A stretch of DNA of 9,004 nucleotides from Candidatus Nanohaloarchaea archaeon (GCA_046497485.1 JAWOFP010000057.1:1-9004), one strand, 5' to 3'. Positions 25-9,004 are shown, numbered from the stretch's first letter. The notes: generated from the sequence alone by a model not told the origin. Numbers and translations are program-made.

Positions 25-819
25 ATGGCTCAGAACCGAGAGATTATGTCATCGCATTTCAAGTTCAAGAAAAGCAAGAGCGATCTCGACACACTGGAAG
101 AAATAATTCAGTACTTTGTAACAGATAAAGACGGTTTCAGTGGGCCAGCAAGCATGGAAATGGCATTAGATATCCTTGGATACAGTGTTAAACAGGAAGA
201 GTTTGCTGAAAAGGCCTCAAAGAAAGAAGAGGAAGATTCTGAAGAAGAGGACTCAGAAGACGATTTAGAAGATGAAATAGAGATTACAGAAGAAGATCTA
301 ATGAAGACTGTTGGAGATATAACAGAAGATGAAGTCTTAACAGCTTGGATTGAATCAGAACATATATCAGATGCAGCAAACGAATTCAAGACCTGGTTCA
401 ACGATGGAGGCCTTGTTGTCCCTGCATTTGATAAATCAAAAGTTCTTCCTTCAGAAGATGGCAGCGAGTACGCAGTCGTTGTAGGAGTTGAAGGCACAGA
501 AATCCTGGTAATGGATCCAAGCAGATCTTCAGGAGGCGTATACTATATCAACAAAGATAGGCTGCTGGATGCGATGGAAGATCATGGCTACATTGTTCTT
601 GCTCCGGTAGGCACTCGTTCAGAATGGAGAGTGAAGAATGATCTTATTTACTCGGATAAGAGCTACTATGATGAGCTTTCTAAGAATCTGGAGAATAGGC
701 TGAGAAAGATTGTCAGACAGGGAAGCATCTTGAAGGATGTCATGCCTGAACAAGTTCAGAAGTATACGGAAGAATGGAAATCGGATGAAAAAGTATCCAG
801 AGTATGGAAACCAGAGTGA
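25..819 (+). CDS. Peptidase C39-like (papain-fold) protein, probably catalytically inactive, with an acidic low-complexity insert
   Basis: GFSGPASMEMALDILG matches the C39 'CGPAsLaM.l...G' motif with Cys replaced by Ser. GSEYAVVVGVEGTEILVMDPS matches 'HyvVv.G.d...v.i.DP' with His replaced by Glu. Insert KKEEEDSEEEDSEDDLEDEIE. The ATG overlaps a TAA (TAATG, 23-27), consistent with coupling to an upstream gene. Confidence 0.65.
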   Translation: MAQNREIMSSHFKFKKSKSDLDTLEEIIQYFVTDKDGFSGPASMEMALDILGYSVKQEEFAEKASKKEEEDSEEEDSEDDLEDEIEITEEDLMKTVGDITEDEVLTAWIESEHISDAANEFKTWFNDGGLVVPAFDKSKVLPSEDGSEYAVVVGVEGTEILVMDPSRSSGGVYYINKDRLLDAMEDHGYIVLAPVGTRSEWRVKNDLIYSDKSYYDELSKNLENRLRKIVRQGSILKDVMPEQVQKYTEEWKSDEKVSRVWKPE

Positions 820-829
820 GGCCTAAACC

Positions 830-1642
830 TTGAAACTCCTGAAAATATCCGACAGTGAACTTGAACAGTTCGATCCTTATTTTGATGAGACAGAGAGAGT
901 AGAGATTTCCGCTGTAGCACCAGAAGTTGTTGATGGAAACTTTGATGTAAAGATTGGGGACTCAAGTATAGGCGATTTCGATGTAGTATATGCAGAAATA
1001 CCTGTGAAAAACGCGGTCTTCGGCAGAGTCATGCTTGAAATGATTGAAGAAGCCCAGATCCCGGTAAATTACTCATCTACAGGATTCTTCCTTTCCGCTA
1101 AGAAAAATTATCAGTACTATACTCTTCACGAACAAGACATTCCAGCGCTGAAGACTGCTGTGGTTGCGACAGAAAAATCTGCTAGAAACCTTGATAAGGA
1201 ACTGAAAGGCCCTATAATTGGAAGAAGATTGGAAGACCTAAAAGAAGTAGAAAATAAGAAACTCGACACGGTAGACAGTATAAAGGCCTTTGCAGATGGT
1301 ACTGAATACAGCGATGAACTATTGATTTTCCATGAGTATCGTAAAGGAGAAAAATACAGATGCCTAGTTATAGATGGAAAAATTATACCTGTACAGGATG
1401 ACTCTGAAGACTGGAGATTTACTGAAGATAATCTAAAATACTCCAATATTTCAGATAAACAGACGGAGATAGTGAAGAAAGCCGTAAAGAGGATAGGAAC
1501 ACCTATGGCTGAAGTACTGATTAGGGGAGAACAGGTCTACGATATCAGGCCTAATCCTGATTTGGAGATGTATACTGATGTTTCAGGTAAAAACGCCTTC
1601 GAGTCAGTAGCTGATATGTTGAAGGAGGAGGCCTCTCAATGA
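830..1642 (+). CDS. Degenerate RimK/LysX-like ATP-grasp protein, probable pseudoenzyme
   Basis: TTG start preceded by GTGAGG. Collinear similarity to the next ORF and the RimK fold (DFDVVYAEI, IPVNYS, IPALKT, GPII, YRCLVIDGKII, DWR, PNPD). It lacks the Gly-rich loop and the ExN metal-binding motif. Confidence 0.7.
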   Translation: MKLLKISDSELEQFDPYFDETERVEISAVAPEVVDGNFDVKIGDSSIGDFDVVYAEIPVKNAVFGRVMLEMIEEAQIPVNYSSTGFFLSAKKNYQYYTLHEQDIPALKTAVVATEKSARNLDKELKGPIIGRRLEDLKEVENKKLDTVDSIKAFADGTEYSDELLIFHEYRKGEKYRCLVIDGKIIPVQDDSEDWRFTEDNLKYSNISDKQTEIVKKAVKRIGTPMAEVLIRGEQVYDIRPNPDLEMYTDVSGKNAFESVADMLKEEASQ

Positions 1643-2523
1643 AGTTAGCAGTGGTTTACGGTGAGATCTCCACTAGGCATCAGCAGATTATGGAGAGAGC
1701 CGAAGATATATTTGATTCTGTGCTTGCTGTACCTGTCGATGGATTAAAGTTTGTTCATGGTGAGGAAGATAAAATTCTGTACAAAGATACTGATTTAACA
1801 GACTTTGAGGCAGTCTATATCCGTATTGATGACCGTGACATGATGCTGGCTGAGCACTTAGCTGAAGTATTGAATAACAATGATGTTGTAACTCAGGCTG
1901 CAGATGACACATTCTCATATGACTCAAACAAGTTCTATAACATGAAGGTCTTGGCAGAAAACGGCGTTAAAGTCCCTGACAGCGTATACACATTGTCTCC
2001 TGATGTTGCTGTTTCCGAAGCTAAAAAACTGGGCTATCCAGTAATTATGAAGACGATCAAAGGTGCTGGCGGAGAAGGAGTAATGCGGGCCTCAAGCGAA
2101 AACGAACTGAAGCCTGTTATGGATACGATGAAGTCCTTTGAACAGGAGATCTGCCTTCAGGATTACAAGGAGCATCAGGGAAGCGATACTAGAATGGTGG
2201 TTATAGGAGACTATGTCACAGGTTACGGACGAACAAGCGGTGGAGACGACTGGAGGTCAAATATTTCATCAGGCGGAGAAAGAACAAAGTCTGAACTTTC
2301 AGAGGAGAAAATTGAGACCGCCATTAGGGCAGCCAGAGCTACAGGATTCGACATTTGTGGCTGTGACTTGATTCAGACAGAAGATGGCGAATTCTATATA
2401 CTGGAAGTTAATGCAGCTTTCGCGGTAAGCGATGAAATGAATGAAATAATAGGAGAAGATGTTACTCTAAAACTGGTTGAGAGAATGCATGAAAAAGCCC
2501 AAGAAAAAAGAAGAAAGAACTAG
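1639..2523 (+). CDS. RimK/LysX family ATP-grasp alpha-L-glutamate ligase-like protein
   Basis: Intact motifs: NKF..MKVL..NGVKVPDS, GYPVIMKTIKGAGGEGV, LQDY, DTR, DWRSNISSGG, CGCDL, YILEVN. ATGA overlap with the upstream ORF. Confidence 0.9.
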   Translation: MKLAVVYGEISTRHQQIMERAEDIFDSVLAVPVDGLKFVHGEEDKILYKDTDLTDFEAVYIRIDDRDMMLAEHLAEVLNNNDVVTQAADDTFSYDSNKFYNMKVLAENGVKVPDSVYTLSPDVAVSEAKKLGYPVIMKTIKGAGGEGVMRASSENELKPVMDTMKSFEQEICLQDYKEHQGSDTRMVVIGDYVTGYGRTSGGDDWRSNISSGGERTKSELSEEKIETAIRAARATGFDICGCDLIQTEDGEFYILEVNAAFAVSDEMNEIIGEDVTLKLVERMHEKAQEKRRKN

Positions 2524-3443
2524 ATTTCAGTTATAGCATCCACGATTTTCTTCATCCAAGGCTTCTCCCATTCTTCTTTACGGCCTTCACCATGGTAATA
2601 AACGCCAGGCTGGGAATTTAACTCGACGATCCAAGGCCTTCCATCAGAGTACATGAAATCAACTGTGTAAATACTAGGATTATACTGGTTCAAATTCTTC
2701 CCTACTTCTTCAACTATCTCAAAGATTCTATCCCCCAGTTCATCTAGTTCTACATAGATCTTGCTTCCGCCTAATGCTACATTGCTTAGGAGGCCTTCGT
2801 CAGGAACTCTGAAGTAAGATCCTATAGGTTCGCCGTTCACTACTAAAACTCTGAGGTCGTGAGGACCTTCAATTCCGTACTCAGGCAGATCATCTGACTC
2901 CATAAATCTCTGTACAAGCATATCTTCCGATATAGTTTCAGGCATTTCTTCAATTACCTTGATCCCTTCTCCTGATGAGCCATAACGCGGTTTAAGCACC
3001 ACTCTGTCGTATTTTTCTAGCATTTCCTCTACATTTTCTTTTGAGCCTTTCCGTGTCTCAGGCAGATAATCTGGGAACTTTCTGTAGGTCTCAAGCTTAT
3101 CCTGACAAAGTTCAGCCACCTCAGAATCATTCAGAATACCGACTTCTTCCTTCATCTCTTTTTTTAACTCATATTTTTCCTCATCGTGCCTGAAAAGATC
3201 ATAGACTCCATTAAGCTCAATATCTTCTAATTTCTCCCACTCTTCACCATTCCAGTGGAAGGCCTTCTCCATTTTCCCATCTTGGTAATGACGGTATTCT
3301 CCGCAAAGGACTTCCACATCTTTTTCTTCCAGCATTTCAGTATACTCAGCGTAATCCTTGTTTTTCCATTCTTTATCGCCGAAAGGCCTGTCTTTACTCC
3401 AGTCTACCTCGTCTTCCCACCAGAGAAAAGCGACCGTTTTCAT
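2520..3443 (-). CDS. ATP-grasp amide ligase (RimK/GshB/YheCD-like), paralog B
   Basis: Motifs CQDKLETY, LPET, VVLKPRYGSSGEGI, LVQRF, HDLRVLVVNG, SNVALGG, VDFM, PWIVELNSQPG. The start overlaps the stop of paralog A (ATGA). Confidence 0.88.
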   Translation of the reverse strand: MKTVAFLWWEDEVDWSKDRPFGDKEWKNKDYAEYTEMLEEKDVEVLCGEYRHYQDGKMEKAFHWNGEEWEKLEDIELNGVYDLFRHDEEKYELKKEMKEEVGILNDSEVAELCQDKLETYRKFPDYLPETRKGSKENVEEMLEKYDRVVLKPRYGSSGEGIKVIEEMPETISEDMLVQRFMESDDLPEYGIEGPHDLRVLVVNGEPIGSYFRVPDEGLLSNVALGGSKIYVELDELGDRIFEIVEEVGKNLNQYNPSIYTVDFMYSDGRPWIVELNSQPGVYYHGEGRKEEWEKPWMKKIVDAITEI

Positions 3444-4378
3444 GCAAACCGTTTCTCGAGCATATTCAAGATATTCCTGATTTTAGGCAGTTCTTTTTCC
3501 TCTTCCTTGACTTCGTGATGGTAATATGTGCCTGGCTTCGAATTTAACTCGACAATCCAAGGCCTTCCGTCTTTATCAAGCATAAAGTCTACGGAGAAAA
3601 TGGCGGGCTGAAAACGCTCAAACTCAGACTTCATGTCCTCAATAATTTCAACTATCTCTTCAAGGAGCTCATCTCTATCCACATAAACTTGGTCTCCGCC
3701 TCTTGAAATATTGCTGATTAGGCCTTCATCAGGGACTCTGACATAGTTCCCGTCCTGAATCTCGCCGTCGATAACAATTGTTCTCAAATCATGAGGGCCT
3801 TCAACACCGAGTTCTGGAATACCATCAGTCTCAATAAAGGCTTGTAAAATGAAATGCTCAGAGTTTTCCGGTTCCTCAAATTCTTCAACTGATTCAATTA
3901 TTTCTACTCCTTCCCCCGCAAATCCGTATCGCGGTTTGAAAACTACTTTACCGTACTGTTTCAGCATTTCCTCTATATTTTCTTTTGAGGCCTCTCGGGT
4001 TTCTGGTACATAATCAGGGAAGAGCTGGTAGGTCTTTAGTTTATCCTTGCAGATTTCCTCAAGTTCGGTATCATTTAGAATTCCTACTTCTTCAGAAATC
4101 TTTTGCTTTAATTTTTTGGTCTCAGGATCATATTTGAACTTGTCATAAACTCCGTCAAGCTCGATATTTTCTGATTTTTCCCATTCTTTTCCGTTCCAGT
4201 GAAAGGCTTTGTTGAGGCCTCCATTAGAGTACCACTGATAGTTGGCTATGAAAATATTCAGATTAAGATCTTTTCCCAGTTCAGTGTACTTTGCAAAGTC
4301 TTTGCTTCTTTCTCCTCCGAAAGGATCTTCCCGATCCCATTCAACTTCCTTATCCCAGAGAATCCCTATATTCTTCAT
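3440..4378 (-). CDS. ATP-grasp amide ligase (RimK/GshB/YheCD-like), paralog A
   Basis: Motifs CKDKLKTY, VPET, VVFKPRYGFAGEGV, ILQAF, HDLRTIVIDG, SNISRGG, VDFM, PWIVELNSKPG. Similar over its full length to 2520..3443. Confidence 0.88.
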   Translation of the reverse strand: MKNIGILWDKEVEWDREDPFGGERSKDFAKYTELGKDLNLNIFIANYQWYSNGGLNKAFHWNGKEWEKSENIELDGVYDKFKYDPETKKLKQKISEEVGILNDTELEEICKDKLKTYQLFPDYVPETREASKENIEEMLKQYGKVVFKPRYGFAGEGVEIIESVEEFEEPENSEHFILQAFIETDGIPELGVEGPHDLRTIVIDGEIQDGNYVRVPDEGLISNISRGGDQVYVDRDELLEEIVEIIEDMKSEFERFQPAIFSVDFMLDKDGRPWIVELNSKPGTYYHHEVKEEEKELPKIRNILNMLEKRFA

Positions 4379-4401
4379 AAAAATTATTTTGAACTCAGCA
4401 T

Positions 4402-4411
4402 TCTTAATAGA
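4402..4411. promoter_or_regulatory. Putative TATA box in the divergent intergenic region, possibly bidirectional
   Basis: TTAATA (+) / TATTAA (-) at 4404-4409 lies in the middle of a 54-bp gap, about 24-31 bp from both the ATG at 4378 (-) and the ATG at 4433 (+). That spacing fits leaderless archaeal transcripts. Confidence 0.4.
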
Positions 4412-4432
4412 TTTAGCAGCGAACTAGAAAGT

Positions 4433-5617
4433 ATGAAACCGGAAAATCCTGAAGTAAAGGAAAAAATAGCTTACCAAGAATTAGAGTTAGAGTTCTCGGA
4501 AGAAAATCTATTCGAAGAACTTTACGAAATGATAGAAGTTCTGACGGGAGAGGCTAACTGGGGTCAAAACATTAATATCAAAAACAGAGAAGAGCAGAAA
4601 AAGGCCTTTCAGGAAGCCAGAGAAAATGGAGAAAAATGGGATCCGGATTTTGAGTTCAAAGATACTGGAAAAGATTTCCGGGCTTTGAAGAATAATATTG
4701 ATCAATGCATAGAGGCCTCAAATAATATTTCAGAGGAAAATATGGGTGATGCAGGATTTGAAGTTTTAACTCCTGAAGACTTGCAAGACTTCTTCAAGGA
4801 ATCTTTCCGTGAATTAAGGCTTTATGTAGATTTAGCTGAGAATATTGAAGGCAGAGAGGCCTGGAAAGAAGTTAGTGAGAAAATCTGGCCGATGATTTCC
4901 AAAGGAGAATATCAGAATTCTTTGGAAGAAATAGAAGGCCTAGAAAATAGAGAAAGTGAGAAGGTTCTAGATGCAGAGGATGTCAAGGAAATGTTTGAAG
5001 AAGAGATTGAGAGATTAGGTTTTGGCTACAGTGTGGAGGTCAGAGAGGTTTCGGGCTGCTTTAATGCTCCTGAAGAGAGAACTGTTGTAGTTGCAAAAGG
5101 AACTGATTCAGAGAGATTTTACTCAAAAGAAGAGGCTGAAATGCTTACAAAACACGAAATTTTCCATGTAGTGAGAGGTATCAACGGTAGAAATATCTCG
5201 GATAACTTCCCTGAAGTTCTCGGAATTCATTCTCCATTTTACGATCAGACAGAGGAAGGCGGCGCACTCTACCGCGAGAGAAAGACTAACACGAATTTTG
5301 AGGCAAAAGACTTTGACTACCATCTACGGTTAATCGCTGCTTACAAAATGAGTCAAGGCGAGACCTTCCATGATGTAATCGAGGATTTACTTGAACTAGG
5401 AGGATCATTAGACAGGAGCTTCTACTTAGTTGCGAGAAATAGAGAGGCCTTAAGACATCATATATACCTCTCTGGTATCAAGGACTGGAATGAAAATAAC
5501 ACTGAAAAACTGTTGATTGGAAAACTGAATTCTGAATGGGCGGGAAAATTCTGGGAAGAAGTAGAAAACGGCAGCTTTAACAGGCCTGAAATAGATTCGG
5601 AGGCGCTTTTCCAATGA
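4433..5617 (+). CDS. DUF1704 / MATCAP(TMCP)-like gluzincin metallo-carboxypeptidase, 394 aa
   Basis: LTKHEIFHVVRGING...LG...P....TEEGGALYRE resembles the DUF1704 'HEigtH....NG......(Q/E)EGLA' signature, with IYLSG near the C-terminus. Start moved from 4199 to the in-frame ATG at 4433 to avoid a 180-bp antisense overlap. Confidence 0.75.
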   Translation: MKPENPEVKEKIAYQELELEFSEENLFEELYEMIEVLTGEANWGQNINIKNREEQKKAFQEARENGEKWDPDFEFKDTGKDFRALKNNIDQCIEASNNISEENMGDAGFEVLTPEDLQDFFKESFRELRLYVDLAENIEGREAWKEVSEKIWPMISKGEYQNSLEEIEGLENRESEKVLDAEDVKEMFEEEIERLGFGYSVEVREVSGCFNAPEERTVVVAKGTDSERFYSKEEAEMLTKHEIFHVVRGINGRNISDNFPEVLGIHSPFYDQTEEGGALYRERKTNTNFEAKDFDYHLRLIAAYKMSQGETFHDVIEDLLELGGSLDRSFYLVARNREALRHHIYLSGIKDWNENNTEKLLIGKLNSEWAGKFWEEVENGSFNRPEIDSEALFQ

Positions 5618-5988
5618 GAGATGTGCTTCTTGACACTAACTTTCTGACCGCGCCTTTCCAGATGAATGTCTCTATATTTGAGGAGATAGATGAAAAGTAT
5701 CCGGGAAACAGAGTCTTCACATTGGACCGCGTAATTGAAGAAGCAAAAAGTATTGAAGACGGAAAATATGGAGGCCTGATCGAAAAACTAGTTGAGTCTG
5801 AAGATGTTCAAGTCTTGGAAACAAAGGGTAATGGGTTTGTGGATGACTTGTTAGTTGATTTATCTGATGAATTCTTGATCGCGACAAATGATAGAGAGCT
5901 CAAGAACAGGATTTTGGACAAGGGCAGGCCTGTTATGTATATCAGATCGGAGAGCCATATTGTGGTAGAGAATGAGGATTTGATGTGA
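5614..5988 (+). CDS. PIN-domain protein (Fcf1/Utp24-like) of the rpoE gene cluster
   Basis: VLLDTNFL...E...VDD...IATNDRELK acidic tetrad. Conserved position upstream of rpoE1. ATGA overlap with the upstream gene. Confidence 0.9.
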   Translation: MRDVLLDTNFLTAPFQMNVSIFEEIDEKYPGNRVFTLDRVIEEAKSIEDGKYGGLIEKLVESEDVQVLETKGNGFVDDLLVDLSDEFLIATNDRELKNRILDKGRPVMYIRSESHIVVENEDLM

Positions 5989-5996
5989 CGGAGTCA

Positions 5997-6038
5997 TTTA
6001 AAACTTTCTTCCGATTGGTTATTTAGTTCCGCAGAGGT
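5997..6038 (+). promoter_or_regulatory. Putative TATA box (TTTAAAA, 5997-6003) and Shine-Dalgarno (GAGGT, 6034-6038) for rpoE1
   Basis: Motif matches in the 61-bp gap before the ATG at 6050. Confidence 0.45.
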
Positions 6039-6049
6039 AGAGGCATTAT

Positions 6050-6616
6050 ATGTACAAAAGACTGACAATCGAGGATTCCGTGCGAGTCCCTCCACAGCAT
6101 TTGGGAGACAATGTAGAAGAAAGCGTTGAAAACGGGCTTAAAGAAGAGAAAGAAGGAGTTATCCACCCGGAGATAGGAGTAGTAATGGCGATTGAGTCCG
6201 TCGAAGAGATTGAAGGCGGCGATATTGAACCAGAAGACGCTGGAATTCATTACAATGCAACTTACAAGGCATTAGTTTTTGAGCCTGAGATGCATGAAGT
6301 ACTGAATGGAGAGGTAGTAGATCTTACGGAGTTCGGAGCATTTGTCAGGATTGGGCCGTTTGATGGCCTATGCCACATCTCACAGGTTACAGATGACTAC
6401 ATGAACCTAGATGAAGAGAACATGATGCTTACAAGCGATGAACAGGAGAAAAGCCTAGGAATGAACGATACAGTTACAGCAAGGATAATCGCAGTAAGTC
6501 TAGGCAACCAAGAATCAAATAAGATTAACTTGACGATGAGACAGCCAGGCCTCGGAAAAGAGGAATGGATCGAGCAGTACGAAGAAGAACAGGAAGAAGA
6601 CGAGGAGGAAGAATAA
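6050..6616 (+). CDS. rpoE1: DNA-directed RNA polymerase subunit E' (Rpo7)
   Basis: MYKRLTIEDSVRVPP; S1 domain GEVVDLTEFGAFVRIGPFDGLCHISQVTDD; LTMRQPGLGKEEW. Confidence 0.97.
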   Translation: MYKRLTIEDSVRVPPQHLGDNVEESVENGLKEEKEGVIHPEIGVVMAIESVEEIEGGDIEPEDAGIHYNATYKALVFEPEMHEVLNGEVVDLTEFGAFVRIGPFDGLCHISQVTDDYMNLDEENMMLTSDEQEKSLGMNDTVTARIIAVSLGNQESNKINLTMRQPGLGKEEWIEQYEEEQEEDEEEE

Positions 6617-6619
6617 AAT

Positions 6620-6805
6620 ATGGCGGAGAAGGCCTGTACTGACTGTAATAGAATAGTAGAAGATTCGGATGAATGTCCGGTATGCAAGAATAATGTGCTA
6701 TCAAACTCGTGGAGCGGCCTAGTGGTCGTCTATGATTCAGATAGCGAGATTGCTGAAGAAGTAGGAGTTCAAACCCCTGGAAGATACGCAATCAGAGTCA
6801 AATAA
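6620..6805 (+). CDS. spt4: Transcription elongation factor Spt4 (RpoE'')
   Basis: KACxxC...CPVC zinc ribbon, WSGLVVV.D..SEIA, PGRYAIRV. Directly after rpoE1. Confidence 0.96.
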   Translation: MAEKACTDCNRIVEDSDECPVCKNNVLSNSWSGLVVVYDSDSEIAEEVGVQTPGRYAIRVK

Positions 6806-6823
6806 AAGAGGTAAAGATAATTT

Positions 6824-7282
6824 ATGGAAGTCGAAATTACAACAGTAAAAGAGAATCCTCTCATGGATAGAAGAGAGGTAGAAGCAACAGTAAACCACGA
6901 AAATGAGGCAACACCAAGCAAAGAAGATGTTCTTTCAAGGCTTGCAGCAGACAGAGGCCTCAACAAAGATAATGTCGATGTAAAGCATGTCTACACAGGA
7001 TACGGTAGACAGAAATCAAAGGCAATTATTCAGATAAACGAAGAGTTCGAGTACGACGAAGATCTTGAAGAAGACACAATTGAGCAGGAGACAGAGACAG
7101 AAACTGAAGAAGAAGAAGGCTCAAGTTCTGCAGAGTATGATAACATAGTTGCAGGAACAATCACAGAAGCGAAGGAAGCTCTAAGTGAAATGGAAGAACC
7201 TGACTACGAAGCAGCTAAAGAAGCAGAAGAAGCAAACAAAAACCGTACTACACTTATCGACTGGTTAGAAGACCAGATTTAA
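6824..7282 (+). CDS. rps24e: 30S ribosomal protein S24e with acidic linker and extra C-terminal helical module
   Basis: KENPLMDRREV...H...ATPSKEDV...LAA...V.HVYTGYG. Shine-Dalgarno GAGGT at 6808-6812. Conserved position before rps27ae. Confidence 0.92.
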   Translation: MEVEITTVKENPLMDRREVEATVNHENEATPSKEDVLSRLAADRGLNKDNVDVKHVYTGYGRQKSKAIIQINEEFEYDEDLEEDTIEQETETETEEEEGSSSAEYDNIVAGTITEAKEALSEMEEPDYEAAKEAEEANKNRTTLIDWLEDQI

Positions 7283-7294
7283 GGTGATCCAAGA

Positions 7295-7444
7295 ATGGCA
7301 AAACACGAGAAAGTAGATAGATTCGAGAAATACAACGAAGACGGAAGCTACGACGGAGAGAAATGCCCAAGATGCGGCAGCTTCCTAGGACAGCACGAAG
7401 ACCGCATGAGCTGCGGTAAATGTGGATACACAAAACACCAATAA
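7295..7444 (+). CDS. rps27ae: 30S ribosomal protein S27ae (eS31), 49 aa, not in the ORF track
   Basis: Manual translation: [49 protein letters not shown]. Matches the CPRCG..L..H.DR..CGKCGYT signature. Shine-Dalgarno AGGTGAT at 7282-7288. Confidence 0.95.
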
Positions 7445-7450
7445 ACTAAG

Positions 7451-7465
7451 AGGCCTATCAGGCCT
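7451..7465. repeat. Tandem AGGCCT palindromes (AGGCCT-atc-AGGCCT), possible small hairpin between rps27ae and kae1
   Basis: Read directly from the sequence; can fold as a 6-bp stem with a 3-nt loop. Confidence 0.6.
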
Positions 7466-7487
7466 TACATATCATAATTTAATTTCT

Positions 7488-8435
7488 ATGAGAATTCTCG
7501 GAATTGAATCAACAGCGCACACATTAGCAGCCTCAACTATTGACGAAGATGAGATTTACACTAACGAGAAAGATATGTATGAACCTGAGAAAGGCGGAAT
7601 ACATCCAAGAGAAGCTGCTGAGCATCACTATCAGAAGGCTCAGGAAATTATTTCTAAAGGCCTGAAAGGAGAGATTGATGCAGTTGCATTTTCCCAGGGT
7701 CCTGGAATCCCTCAATGCCTTGACACTGGTGCTGTCGCCGCAAGAACATTGGCACAGAAACATGAAGTTCCTCTAATTGGGGTGAATCACTGCGTGGCGC
7801 ATATTGAGATCGGGAAACGGACGACCGGTGCGGAAAGGCCTACAACACTGTATCTTTCAGGCGGGAATTCCCAGGTAATCGCAGAAAAAAATAATGAATA
7901 CAGGATAATCGGCGAAACATTGGACATCGCTCTAGGAAACGCAGTTGACAAATTAGCAAGGACAATGGGTTATCCTCATCCGGGCGGGCCTGAAATCGAG
8001 AAGTTAGCGGAAGAGACAGATGAAATTTTAGAAATTGCTTACCCTGTGAAGGGTATGGATTTTAGTTTTTCAGGAATCACAACTGAACTTCAAAGAAGAG
8101 TAGGGGATGTTGATGATGCTGTGATTGCGAATACTTTCCAAGAACACGCATACGCAGCGACGGTTGAAGCACTGGAACGAGCGATGAGTCAGACAAACAG
8201 CGATGAGGCCTTGCTCACAGGAGGAGTAGCGATGAACTCCCGGCTCAGAGAGATGGTGGAAACTATGTGCGAGCAACGAGGAGCAGATGCTTACTTCCCT
8301 CCAAAAGAGTACTGCATGGACAACGCAGCAATGATCGCAGAAAGAGGCCTCAAAAAAGCGAAGAGAAAGGAATTCACGGATCTAAAAGATTCTAAAATCA
8401 AGCGTAACTGGAGGCCTGACCGTATAAAGGTGTAA
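7488..8435 (+). CDS. kae1: tRNA N6-adenosine threonylcarbamoyltransferase Kae1 (KEOPS), stand-alone, 315 aa
   Basis: MRILGIESTAHT, GGIHPREAAEHH, AFSQGPG, GVNHCVAHIEIG, LYLSGGNSQ, GETLDIALGNAVDK, GGVAMN, DNAAMIA. Start moved from 7422 to 7488 because 7422 lies inside rps27ae. Confidence 0.97.
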   Translation: MRILGIESTAHTLAASTIDEDEIYTNEKDMYEPEKGGIHPREAAEHHYQKAQEIISKGLKGEIDAVAFSQGPGIPQCLDTGAVAARTLAQKHEVPLIGVNHCVAHIEIGKRTTGAERPTTLYLSGGNSQVIAEKNNEYRIIGETLDIALGNAVDKLARTMGYPHPGGPEIEKLAEETDEILEIAYPVKGMDFSFSGITTELQRRVGDVDDAVIANTFQEHAYAATVEALERAMSQTNSDEALLTGGVAMNSRLREMVETMCEQRGADAYFPPKEYCMDNAAMIAERGLKKAKRKEFTDLKDSKIKRNWRPDRIKV

Positions 8436-8441
8436 AAAATT

Positions 8442-9004
8442 ATGGAAGAAACAGAAGAAGCAAAAGAATTCATCAAAGAGAATAAAGTAATTGTTTATCC
8501 TACAGAGACAGCTTATGGAATAGGAGGCAATGCGCTGAACGAAAAAATTATCGATAGAGTCTATGATGCAAAGCAGAGGCCTAGAAGCAAAGGTCTGACA
8601 GTGATTGTTAATTCTCTTGAGCAAGCTGAGAAATATGCCAAGCTTTCCGATGAGGAGAAGGCCTTAGTCGAAGAATTTATGCCAGGCCCTCTTACACTTG
8701 TTGCAGAGAAAAAAGATATTGTTCCGGATAACTTGAACGACAGCTTTGTGTTCAGGATTTCTTCTTCACCTATCGCACGTGAACTGGCTTCTGAAGGGCC
8801 TATAGTGGCGACCAGCGCTAATATTTCCGGTGAGAAGACGAGTTACTCGGTTGATGATATTTCGGAAGAGTTACTGGATAAAGTTGATTTTGTGTTGGAT
8901 AAAGGACGGCTTCCTAGAGGTCCGACTTCTACTATCGTTGAAATTAGGGACGGTGAGGTTTTTATTCACAGAGATGGACCTATTTCACAGGAAGAGGTAG
9001 AGAA
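8442..9004 (+). CDS. tsaC: L-threonylcarbamoyladenylate synthase (TsaC/YrdC/Sua5 family), truncated at the window edge, not in the ORF track
   Basis: Manual translation: MEETEEAKEFIKENKVIVYPTETAYGIGGNA...KQRPRSK...MPGPLTLV...ATSANISG...PTSTIVEI...HRDGPISQEEVE. No stop before the window end. Confidence 0.93.
   Translation, partial: MEETEEAKEFIKENKVIVYPTETAYGIGGNALNEKIIDRVYDAKQRPRSKGLTVIVNSLEQAEKYAKLSDEEKALVEEFMPGPLTLVAEKKDIVPDNLNDSFVFRISSSPIARELASEGPIVATSANISGEKTSYSVDDISEELLDKVDFVLDKGRLPRGPTSTIVEIRDGEVFIHRDGPISQEEVE

Follow-up and report, generated by a model that had tools for sequence, protein, structure and literature searches.

AGGCCT is a highly iterated palindrome in the DNA of one nanohaloarchaeal family

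The hexamer AGGCCT is a highly iterated palindrome of one nanohaloarchaeal family, and it is a word of double-stranded DNA, not an RNA or protein signal. We studied it from a window of 9004 bp, which is the entire contig C58 (JAWOFP010000057.1) of a Candidatus Nanohaloarchaea assembly (GCA_046497485.1; 967,558 bp in 66 contigs, 41.5% G+C). The genome carrying this window is referred to as G000, and the other G codes denote relatives in the same phylum. An earlier note, made from the window sequence alone, had likened the word to highly iterated palindrome 1 (HIP1) of cyanobacteria, and at the level of DNA the likeness is a good one: the excess of AGGCCT is seen in genes as well as in non-coding DNA, and it depends on neither frame nor strand nor codon usage.

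The note had counted 34 exact copies between positions 212 and 8664, and a recount gave the same number at the same coordinates. Its expectation of about two copies was also right, as 200 dinucleotide-preserving shuffles of the window averaged 1.92 copies and never exceeded 7, so that 0 of 200 reached 34. As it had observed, 34 of the 46 GGCC tetramers in the window are flanked by A and T, and most of the others (9 of 12) are one-mismatch variants, namely GGGCCT (4), AGGCCC (2), CGGCCT (2) and TGGCCT (1); the remaining three differ from AGGCCT at both flanks. The excess is genome-wide and not a property of the window only, with 3249 copies in 0.97 Mb of G000 (one per 298 bp) and all 66 contigs carrying the word at 1.8-5.8 per kb. 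AGGCCT ranks first among the 4096 hexamers both by count and by observed/expected ratio (O/E; 21.1), the second palindromic hexamer, CTGCAG, reaches an O/E of only 2.15, and GGCC outside AGGCCT is near expectation (1360 copies).

Codon bias is insufficient to produce this excess, as the note had argued. Gene calls in G000 were crude longest open reading frames (ORFs), 1129 in number and covering 92.6% of the DNA. Against the 2965 copies observed in them, shuffles of synonymous codons within genes, which preserve the proteins and the codon usage of each gene, gave a mean of 421 (standard deviation 13, maximum 446, n = 30), and shuffles of codon order gave 192. The two outcomes that the note had named as refuting its claim, confinement of the excess to the window and its disappearance under codon-preserving shuffles, were thus both looked for and neither was obtained. 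The three codon phases hold 536, 1009 and 1420 copies. The density is 3.32 per kb in coding and 3.57 per kb in non-coding DNA (35.6% G+C), and it is flat over gene starts and stops. In the 73 kb of non-coding DNA AGGCCT is the top hexamer, with 263 copies against 162 for the runner-up (O/E 35.5), and the non-coding DNA of G010 has 496 copies (O/E 34.5). Equal density in coding and non-coding DNA was considered as a sign of density control and dropped, because a constant per-site advantage accounts for both; by our own estimate a full site has an advantage in odds of about 35-80 fold over any non-site. The tRNA genes contain 2 AGGCCT in 2243 nt. A tRNA-Arg gene of G000 (contig C46:4299-4373) has AGGTCT on the 5' strand of its acceptor and AGGCCT on the 3' strand, at the cost of a G.U pair.

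The excess belongs to the exact word. In the non-coding DNA of G000 the 18 one-mismatch words jointly have an O/E of 1.3, compared with about 35 for AGGCCT, and the corresponding values in G010 are 1.28 and 34.5. Since the one-mismatch words are near neutral, recognition would have to be close to all-or-none at all six positions, which resembles the behaviour of type II restriction-modification enzymes more closely than that of typical DNA-binding proteins. The flanks of the word differ between genomes: among 8-mers, G010 favours AAGGCCTT (857 copies, O/E 51) and G000 favours GAGGCCTC (267 copies, O/E 40).

We surveyed 70 genomes of the phylum and called those rich that had at least 2 AGGCCT per kb and at least 4.3 times the count of the reversed control word. 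Twelve genomes in 4 of the 32 genera are rich: G000-G003 in genus g1, all three genomes of g7, all three of g19, and two of the six in g2 (G005 and G060, in contrast to G059, G061, G062 and G063). A further member of g1, G004, is intermediate (760-762 copies, 0.95 per kb), and in all 57 remaining genomes AGGCCT is at most 1.6 times as common as the control word. Genera g1 and g2 therefore hold both states. The rich genomes are all in family f1 (12 of 50), and there is none among the 20 genomes of the other four families. In a tree of Kae1, a single gene with weak backbone support, g1 is sister to the rest of f1 (100/100), G010 and G022 are paired (92/88), and the rich/poor label needs three changes.

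Some relatives show the opposite. In the first 400 kb of G021, a genome with N4/N6 methyltransferases, GGCC has an O/E of 0.15 and AGGCCT of 0.21, and no alternative hyper-abundant palindrome was found in that part. In G020 and G024 AGGCCT is 3.5-7 times rarer than the control word. Both have C5 methyltransferases (loci L001 and L002) which, coming from different genera, are 89% identical; this identity together with the scarcity of the word suggests that a restriction-modification system with GGCC-type targets was transferred. Such a pattern of restriction-site avoidance is absent in G000, where AGGCCT is 21-fold over-represented.

Among rich relatives the word is kept better than its surroundings. 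Retention was measured at one locus, Kae1, a small sample of 2.5-2.9 kb aligned at 73-78% nucleotide identity: G002 retains 10 of 10 G000 sites and 10 of 11 G003 sites, and G003 retains 7 of 10 G000 sites, compared with 17-21% for all other hexamers among rich genomes, a 3.5-5 times better retention. Together with the excess of the exact word in non-coding DNA, this bears out the note's view that an active force maintains AGGCCT. From G003 to its sister G004, retention at the same locus is 4 of 15 sites against a background of 22%. Genome-wide, one-mismatch words per site number 4.8 in G004 compared with 1.15 in G000 and G010, and AGGTCT, at 801 loci (O/E 2.31), exceeds AGGCCT. When 1330 G000 sites were mapped in G004 orthologues, 188 were intact and 425 were single-mismatch relics, mostly C to T. 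The most economical explanation is that in the G004 lineage the force has weakened or gone and the copies are in decay.

Proteins accommodate the word to a large extent. Places were counted as allowed where the protein reads R-P, (K/E/Q)-A-(F/L/S/Y/C/W), or x-G-L with x having a codon ending in A. The fraction of these that is filled, which is approximate because the gene calls are crude longest ORFs, is 2947/4424 (67%) in G000, 3913/5313 (74%) in G010, 661/3008 (22%) in G004 and 15/1104 (1.4%) in the first 400 kb of G021. Unfilled allowed places in G000 mostly carry one change in the central CC. The allowed places are themselves denser in rich genomes, at 4.6-4.75 per kb versus 2.76 per kb in the poor G021, and a codon alignment of Kae1 contains word-creating changes from N-P to R-P, L-G-I to L-G-L, K-P to R-P and Q-G-L to R-G-L. 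Of 1207 mapped G000 sites, 536 (44%) are also AGGCCT in G010. A share of this size, close to the two fill rates multiplied together, is expected if conserved allowed places fill independently in each genome, and the shared positions do not show common descent.

Within the window, the genes are archaeal (RpoE/Rpb7-like, S24e, Kae1 and Sua5), with an accessory cluster of ATP-grasp ligases and a MATCAP-like peptidase. The statement that copies use all three codon phases and genes on both strands proved correct: 9 read R-P (AGG-CCT), 10 xAG-GCC-Txx and 13 G-L (xxA-GGC-CTx), the site at 4215 in an overlap of ORFs being entered once, as G-L. Of the three sites that had been called intergenic, the one at 819 lies outside the listed ORFs, and those at 7451 and 7460 fall within codons 1-15 of the longest Kae1 ORF. 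They are upstream of where relatives begin to align (residues 15-23), so that they probably belong to the Kae1 leader. A further site outside the listed ORFs is at 6630, which makes at least two intergenic positions. The 34 sites are as follows.

212..217, in ORF 25-819, K-A-S (xAG-GCC-Txx)
408..413, in ORF 25-819, G-G-L (xxA-GGC-CTx)
819..824, beginning on the last stop-codon base of ORF 25-819 and lying in the 10-nt spacer ahead of ORF 830-1642
1284..1289, in ORF 830-1642, K-A-F
1547..1552, in ORF 830-1642, R-P (AGG-CCT)
1629..1634, in ORF 830-1642, E-A-S
2634..2639, in the ATP-grasp gene 2520-3443, minus strand, R-P
2791..2796, in the ATP-grasp gene 2520-3443, minus strand, E-G-L
3260..3265, in the ATP-grasp gene 2520-3443, minus strand, K-A-F
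3384..3389, in the ATP-grasp gene 2520-3443, minus strand, R-P
3560..3565, in the ATP-grasp gene 3440-4378, minus strand, R-P
3720..3725, in the ATP-grasp gene 3440-4378, minus strand, E-G-L
3988..3993, in the ATP-grasp gene 3440-4378, minus strand, E-A-S
4215..4220, in the overlap of the longest ORFs 3440-4378 (minus) and 4199-5617 (plus)
4602..4607, in the MATCAP-like gene 4199-5617, plus strand, K-A-F
4713..4718, in the MATCAP-like gene 4199-5617, E-A-S
4857..4862, in the MATCAP-like gene 4199-5617, E-A-W
4936..4941, in the MATCAP-like gene 4199-5617, E-G-L
5445..5450, in the MATCAP-like gene 4199-5617, E-A-L
5582..5587, in the MATCAP-like gene 4199-5617, R-P
5772..5777, in the PIN_9 gene 5614-5988, G-G-L
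5926..5931, in the PIN_9 gene 5614-5988, R-P
6547..6552, in the RpoE/Rpb7-like gene 6050-6616, P-G-L
6630..6635, between the RpoE-like and S24e genes, outside the listed ORFs
6955..6960, in the S24e gene 6824-7282, R-G-L
7451..7456, in the probable Kae1 leader, first of a pair 9 nt apart
7460..7465, in the probable Kae1 leader, second of that pair; pairs this close are rare genome-wide
7658..7663, in Kae1, K-G-L; also in G002 and G003, AGGACT in G004, N/E-A/V-x in other genera
7836..7841, in Kae1, R-P; also in G002 and G003, AGCCCT (S-P) in G004, N-P or D-P in most other genera, so that the amino-acid change suits AGGCCT
8206..8211, in Kae1, E-A-L; also in G002, AAGCCC in G003, AAGCAC in G004
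8345..8350, in Kae1, R-G-L, where other genera have Q-G-L; common to G002, G003, G004 and G010
8412..8417, in Kae1, a conserved R-P; in 7/7 rich or intermediate alignment rows and some poor rows
8577..8582, in the Sua5/YrdC gene 8442-9002, R-P
8659..8664, in the Sua5/YrdC gene 8442-9002, K-A-L

Parts of the window were found in 11 sequencing runs, in all of them as assembled contigs and with no RNA run among them; a comparison of four of these runs indicated that many related populations are present.

The note had also concluded from the word that the ATP-grasp cluster is long-resident. This stands for the genes at 2520-5617, which have 15 sites (4.3-4.9 per kb), are syntenic in G010, where they lie beside Kae1, have homologues in the first 400 kb of G021 and are cleanly deleted in G004. 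It does not extend to the RimK-like gene at 1639-2523, which offers neither a site nor an allowed place (0 of each). The cluster as a whole (1639-5617) comprises, besides this RimK-like ATP-grasp gene, the MATCAP-like gene (tubulin tyrosine carboxypeptidase family) and, on the other strand, two ATP-grasp genes of YheC/D/TTL-like type, a set that would suit the addition and trimming of C-terminal amino-acid tails.

Foreign DNA lacks the word, which supports the case for long residence of the genes at 2520-5617. G010, which is one contig, averages 40 AGGCCT per 10-kb interval (standard deviation 7.3). Its lowest interval and longest AGGCCT-free gaps contain Cas1, Cas8b, an integrase with an HTH (helix-turn-helix) gene, a Schlafen/AlbA_2 ATPase, a nickel-related island of 5.5 kb, large proteins without assigned family and one that resembles S-layer proteins. 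The two poorest contigs of G000 are C53 (1.83 per kb) and C45 (2.18 per kb), the latter with a cas operon. On C53 a C5 methyltransferase gene adjoins an AAA_5 (McrB-like) gene (L005:125-1228, minus strand, and L005:1322-2728, plus strand), a pair that looks like an acquired defence cassette. The type I-B cas operon occurs in only two of 41 genomes, G000 (C45) and G010 (798757-808399; L142, L143); it is AGGCCT-poor in both, and its proteins are 73-91% identical between them, where the genome median is 58%. The CRISPR array of G010 has 22 repeats and 21 spacers, two of which contain AGGCCT; the array had no match in GenBank phages, and the one spacer tried in IMG/VR had none there.

Copies avoid one another within about 50-100 bp, and they do so in two lineages, G000 and G010. 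Gaps of at most 20 nt make up 1.1% of all gaps in G000, compared with 6.65% under a geometric law, and the density of pairs relative to its plateau rises with distance as follows.

6-20 nt: 0.22 in G000, 0.39 in G010
20-50 nt: 0.53 in G000, 0.67 in G010
50-100 nt: 0.77 in G000, 0.83 in G010
100-150 nt: 0.97 in G000, 0.96 in G010

Beyond 150 nt it is near 1 in both genomes, and there was no reproducible long-range period, as the spectral peaks stayed below 10 times the median and differed between G000 and G010. The probability that an allowed place is filled is 0.28 when the nearest copy is 10-20 nt away, 0.52 at 20-30 nt and 0.70-0.78 beyond 75 nt. Against a permutation null (n = 200) that preserves the number of filled places per gene, the deficit in the four bins below 50 nt has z values of -7.3, -6.6, -3.6 and -3.6 in G000 and -5.6, -5.2, -3.9 and -3.5 in G010. 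This short-range avoidance is not predicted by a force that works on each place independently. Explanations that fit are a per-segment benefit that saturates, the footprint of a protein, a penalty on 6-bp hairpins, and deletion between close repeats.

To account for these observations we tentatively favour, at somewhat less than an even chance, the reading that AGGCCT is a cis signal, read by a symmetric protein, through which the cell maintains its own DNA by recombination or repair. A symmetric (dimeric) DNA-binding or DNA-processing protein would read the exact word with the stringency of a restriction enzyme, and the cell would use the word as a cis-acting signal of genome maintenance, most likely in the recombination or repair of its own DNA, acting in the way of Chi, of uptake sequences and of what is currently proposed for HIP1. 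One copy would benefit a segment of DNA and a second copy nearby would add little. The advantage to the segment would be enough to fill about two thirds of the places that proteins allow and to alter tolerant amino acids. The reader itself would be dispensable, fast-evolving or transferable, which would explain a trait found in at least three separate lineages and differing within two genera, and it would lie outside the tested families of DNA methyltransferases, Vsr, MutS and bacterial competence proteins.

Several points weigh against this reading. That the word is selected for recombination or repair goes beyond its being maintained and is an inference, and a drive by biased conversion, without benefit to the cell, would also fit the counts. 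A hexamer is a poorly discriminating signal. Steric exclusion, a tendency to avoid 6-bp hairpins or the loss of DNA between neighbouring repeats could each cause the short-range avoidance, and beyond 50 nt it is no stronger than in the within-gene permutation null. The fill fractions are approximate, and G004 may have a weakened force, not a lost one, and stand at a weaker steady state. Finally, no reader protein was found, and eight gene candidates failed as correlates of the trait.

These eight were as follows. Cas8b occurs only in G000 and G010 out of 41 genomes, and RadC in 35 of 41, poor ones included. A 250-aa protein is found in the poor G023 and G024 and absent from the rich G002, G003 and G005, and a second PolB is absent from the rich genus g19 and found in many poor genomes. 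DUF123 is in 43 of 50 genomes, NucS in 5 of 5, HhH-GPD in 2-4 copies in each of 5, and a C5 methyltransferase in one of the 12 rich genomes. Gene content was compared across G004 (814,531 bp), G010 (1,118,574 bp) and the first 400 kb of G021. There are 135 G000 proteins with a homologue in G010 and none in G004, of which 114 are also without a match in the G021 part. Pfam searches on 99 such proteins returned mostly housekeeping genes and no DNA methyltransferase; that housekeeping genes should appear to be missing from G004 reflects its incompleteness. Clean deletions in G004 amount to 78 blocks with 107 genes, and a scan for broken genes gave 62 hits, the majority being artefacts caused by where ORFs end or by the 20-kb cuts. 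Candidates chosen as basic or as absent from G004 (photolyases and the PolB paralogue) were rejected, as were the genes whose similarity between G000 and G010 is unusually high, which code for an SPFH protein, an AAA ATPase, an ABC transporter and NikR.

Two of the genes tried have neighbourhoods of their own to record. The second family-B PolB paralogue (about 700 aa; G010:669133-670995, L136) is adjoined by small basic ORFs and is scattered in f1 irrespective of AGGCCT. NucS/EndoMS adjoins RadC in all five complete genomes (G010:1003574-1005068; G005, G014, G021, G022) and in G000 (C7:14969-16493), and G004 has kept NucS with RadC cleanly deleted.

The idea of a maintenance signal has a bolder form, which we hold possible but doubtful: that AGGCCT is a self-DNA tag whose exact reader is a protein family new to science, spread horizontally among nanohaloarchaeal lineages and neither a methyltransferase nor a part of bacterial competence or mismatch repair. 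Such a reader would rewrite a whole genome of a megabase, and the proteins with it, in the time over which one genus diverges, and the cyanobacterial palindromes may be a second case of this principle.

The mechanism that the note had listed first, repair coupled to methylation, was not borne out by any methyltransferase family tested, by Vsr or by a depletion of deamination products, and we now regard it as unlikely. In this mechanism, which is Elhai's model for HIP1, an orphan methyltransferase would mark AGGCCT or GGCC, and repair of the mismatch or very-short-patch type would restore, or over-correct towards, the word. All-or-none recognition as in type II enzymes would suit this, as would a patchy distribution like that of restriction-modification genes, the decay in G004 that is chiefly C-to-T, and a pressure directed at GGCC within family f1 (GGCC at 0.15 in G021; AGGCCT scarce in G020 and G024, which have C5 methyltransferases). 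In cyanobacteria HIP1 and the alternate palindromes co-occur with cognate methyltransferases, HIP1 being nearly coextensive with CGATCG and GATC methyltransferases (PMC4390886). No such gene is shared by the rich nanohaloarchaea among the families searched. PF00145 (C5) is present in one of the 12 rich genomes, G000 itself, on its AGGCCT-poorest contig beside the McrB-like gene; in this enzyme the catalytic core alone matches solved methyltransferases, and it is 27% identical to the G020 enzyme. PF01555 (N4/N6) is above cut-off among the 12 only in G022 and marginal in G049. In five genomes tested, PF02384 is strong only in G005 and G022, PF02086 is absent (0/5), and PF07669 is a different protein in each, interrupted by a stop in G010. 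Vsr and MutS were each found in 0/5 genomes. The products expected from deamination are undepleted in G000 (AGGTCT O/E 1.54, AGGCTT 1.46), and in G004 the inner and outer C decay similarly once codon constraint is considered, AGGTCT being already high in the never-rich G021. The effects of very-short-patch repair known so far are much smaller than 20-35 fold.

An architectural role, in which some abundant nucleoid-associated or chromosome-organising protein binds by preference at AGGCCT and selection keeps the array for compaction, segregation or loops, seems to us quite unlikely. Such a role would agree with a palindrome that is indifferent to genes and evenly spread over the chromosome, as the narrow spread over the 10-kb intervals of G010 (mean 40, standard deviation 7.3) illustrates, and an exclusion zone of about 50-100 nt per copy fits a footprint or a wrapped unit. 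However, proteins of this kind usually have graded affinity and should enrich near-cognate words, which stand at only 1.3, and no long-range periodicity was found in G000 or G010. A core function is not expected to toggle within genera, and no small basic protein specific to rich genomes emerged from the comparison of candidates.

A strict uptake signal is improbable in our estimation. Under it a surface receptor would prefer DNA with AGGCCT, and biased uptake followed by recombination would enrich the word by molecular drive. It would predict much of what is seen, including thousands of copies in both orientations, a spacing more even than chance, tolerant protein positions with amino-acid changes, absence from foreign islands, and flank dialects (AAGGCCTT in G010, GAGGCCTC in G000). 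The G010 spacers have 2 AGGCCT in 764 nt against 0.18 expected, so that incoming DNA may carry the word, but this count is of two sites only. The bacterial-type competence families ComEC, DprA and ComEA-type HHH_3 are each absent from the five complete genomes (0/5), and by our estimate the preference over the GC-rich DNA of a host would be only some ten-fold with a hexamer. Natural competence of these organisms is undocumented in the parts of the nanohaloarchaeal papers examined.

Very improbable, in our judgement, is a reader that comes from the haloarchaeal host or a virus and reaches the DNA of the symbiont, with the trait tracking host association in place of gene content. We know of no mechanism that would let a foreign enzyme raise the number of its sites instead of lowering it. 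The trait does flip within genera, and no gene of the rich genomes correlated with it despite the within-genus contrasts, but this support is wholly negative, the candidates examined amount to about one tenth of the shared genes, and the genomes are without a known host. In a co-culture, host DNA is reported to be methylated at the motif of its symbiont (PMC11001535), so that proteins may pass from one partner to the other.

Composition, codon or amino-acid bias and assembly artefact are already refuted: their one support, a maximal-order Markov O/E of only 1.09 in G000, comes from a model that is blind to the signal because the pentamers AGGCC and GGCCT hold the same excess, and they are rejected by the dinucleotide, synonymous-codon and codon-order shuffles, by the 35-fold excess in non-coding DNA and by richness in 12 independent assemblies, one-contig genomes included.

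Other palindromes are strongly avoided in G000, among them TACGTA (O/E 0.09), GTGCAC (0.13), CACGTG (0.13), ACGT (0.15) and words of CGCG type. GTGCAC is also low, at 0.16-0.19, in G010, G004 and the first 400 kb of G021; it falls within GDGCHC, a word reported as methylated in a cultured nanohaloarchaeon (PMC11001535).

Full-text searches of the literature turned up no paper describing AGGCCT in nanohaloarchaea, and only other motifs are mentioned in the text of PMC11001535 and PMC10609329 and in passages of PMC10266531. The word has practical uses. Its density distinguishes resident from recently gained DNA in these genomes and helps to bin nanohaloarchaeal contigs, and the amino-acid changes that it forces are a bias for phylogenetic and selection analyses of the proteins concerned. 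The system is also a tractable one, with a genome of about 1 Mb, a word that is its commonest hexamer and no cognate methyltransferase common to the rich genomes. The on/off contrasts within genera (g1, with G004 decaying; g2, with two of six genomes rich), together with one-contig genomes, mean that the responsible factor should be findable.

Among known systems, restriction-site avoidance concerns the same GGCC core, and G020, G021 and G024, which avoid GGCC/AGGCCT, have methyltransferases; the effect in rich genomes has the opposite sign and enriches only the form A-GGCC-T. In Escherichia coli, Dcm and very-short-patch repair by Vsr shape CCWGG-related words. This is a sequence-specific repair bias able to make a methylated palindrome more frequent, but its effect is small, the loss of T-containing neighbours that it predicts is not seen here, and Vsr is absent from the five genomes.

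The uptake signal sequences (USS) of Pasteurellaceae and the DNA uptake sequences (DUS) of Neisseriaceae are words of 9-12 nt that are not palindromic, occur about once per kb and need ComEC/DprA-type machinery. AGGCCT shares with them enrichment at the level of segments, over-even spacing, tolerant protein positions, lineage dialects and absence from foreign DNA. It differs in being a palindrome of 6 nt and denser, and genes of ComEC/DprA type were not found in the five complete genomes.

The closest parallel is with HIP1, GCGATCGC, and the alternate highly iterated palindromes (HIPs) of cyanobacteria, which include the hexamer GGCGCC in Calothrix PCC 7103 (Elhai 2015, PMC4390886). HIP1 is conserved and under selection (Xu et al. 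2018, PMC5861425), and it raises transformation efficiency in a homology-dependent manner (bioRxiv 10.1101/2024.09.10.611283). Like HIP1 and its alternates, AGGCCT is a short palindrome with thousands of copies and a 15- to over 50-fold excess; as with HIP1, it occupies all frames, both strands and spacers, is conserved above background, is scarce in foreign DNA and differs between close relatives. Unlike HIP1, it is another word in a different domain of life, it is denser (3.4-4 per kb against the 0.3-2.7 per kb given for HIP1 in PMC4390886), its rich genomes have no cognate methyltransferase in common among the families tested, and it showed short-range exclusion but no reproducible long-range period. 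HIPs have gone unexplained in cyanobacteria for three decades, and AGGCCT provides a second, independent case in another domain.

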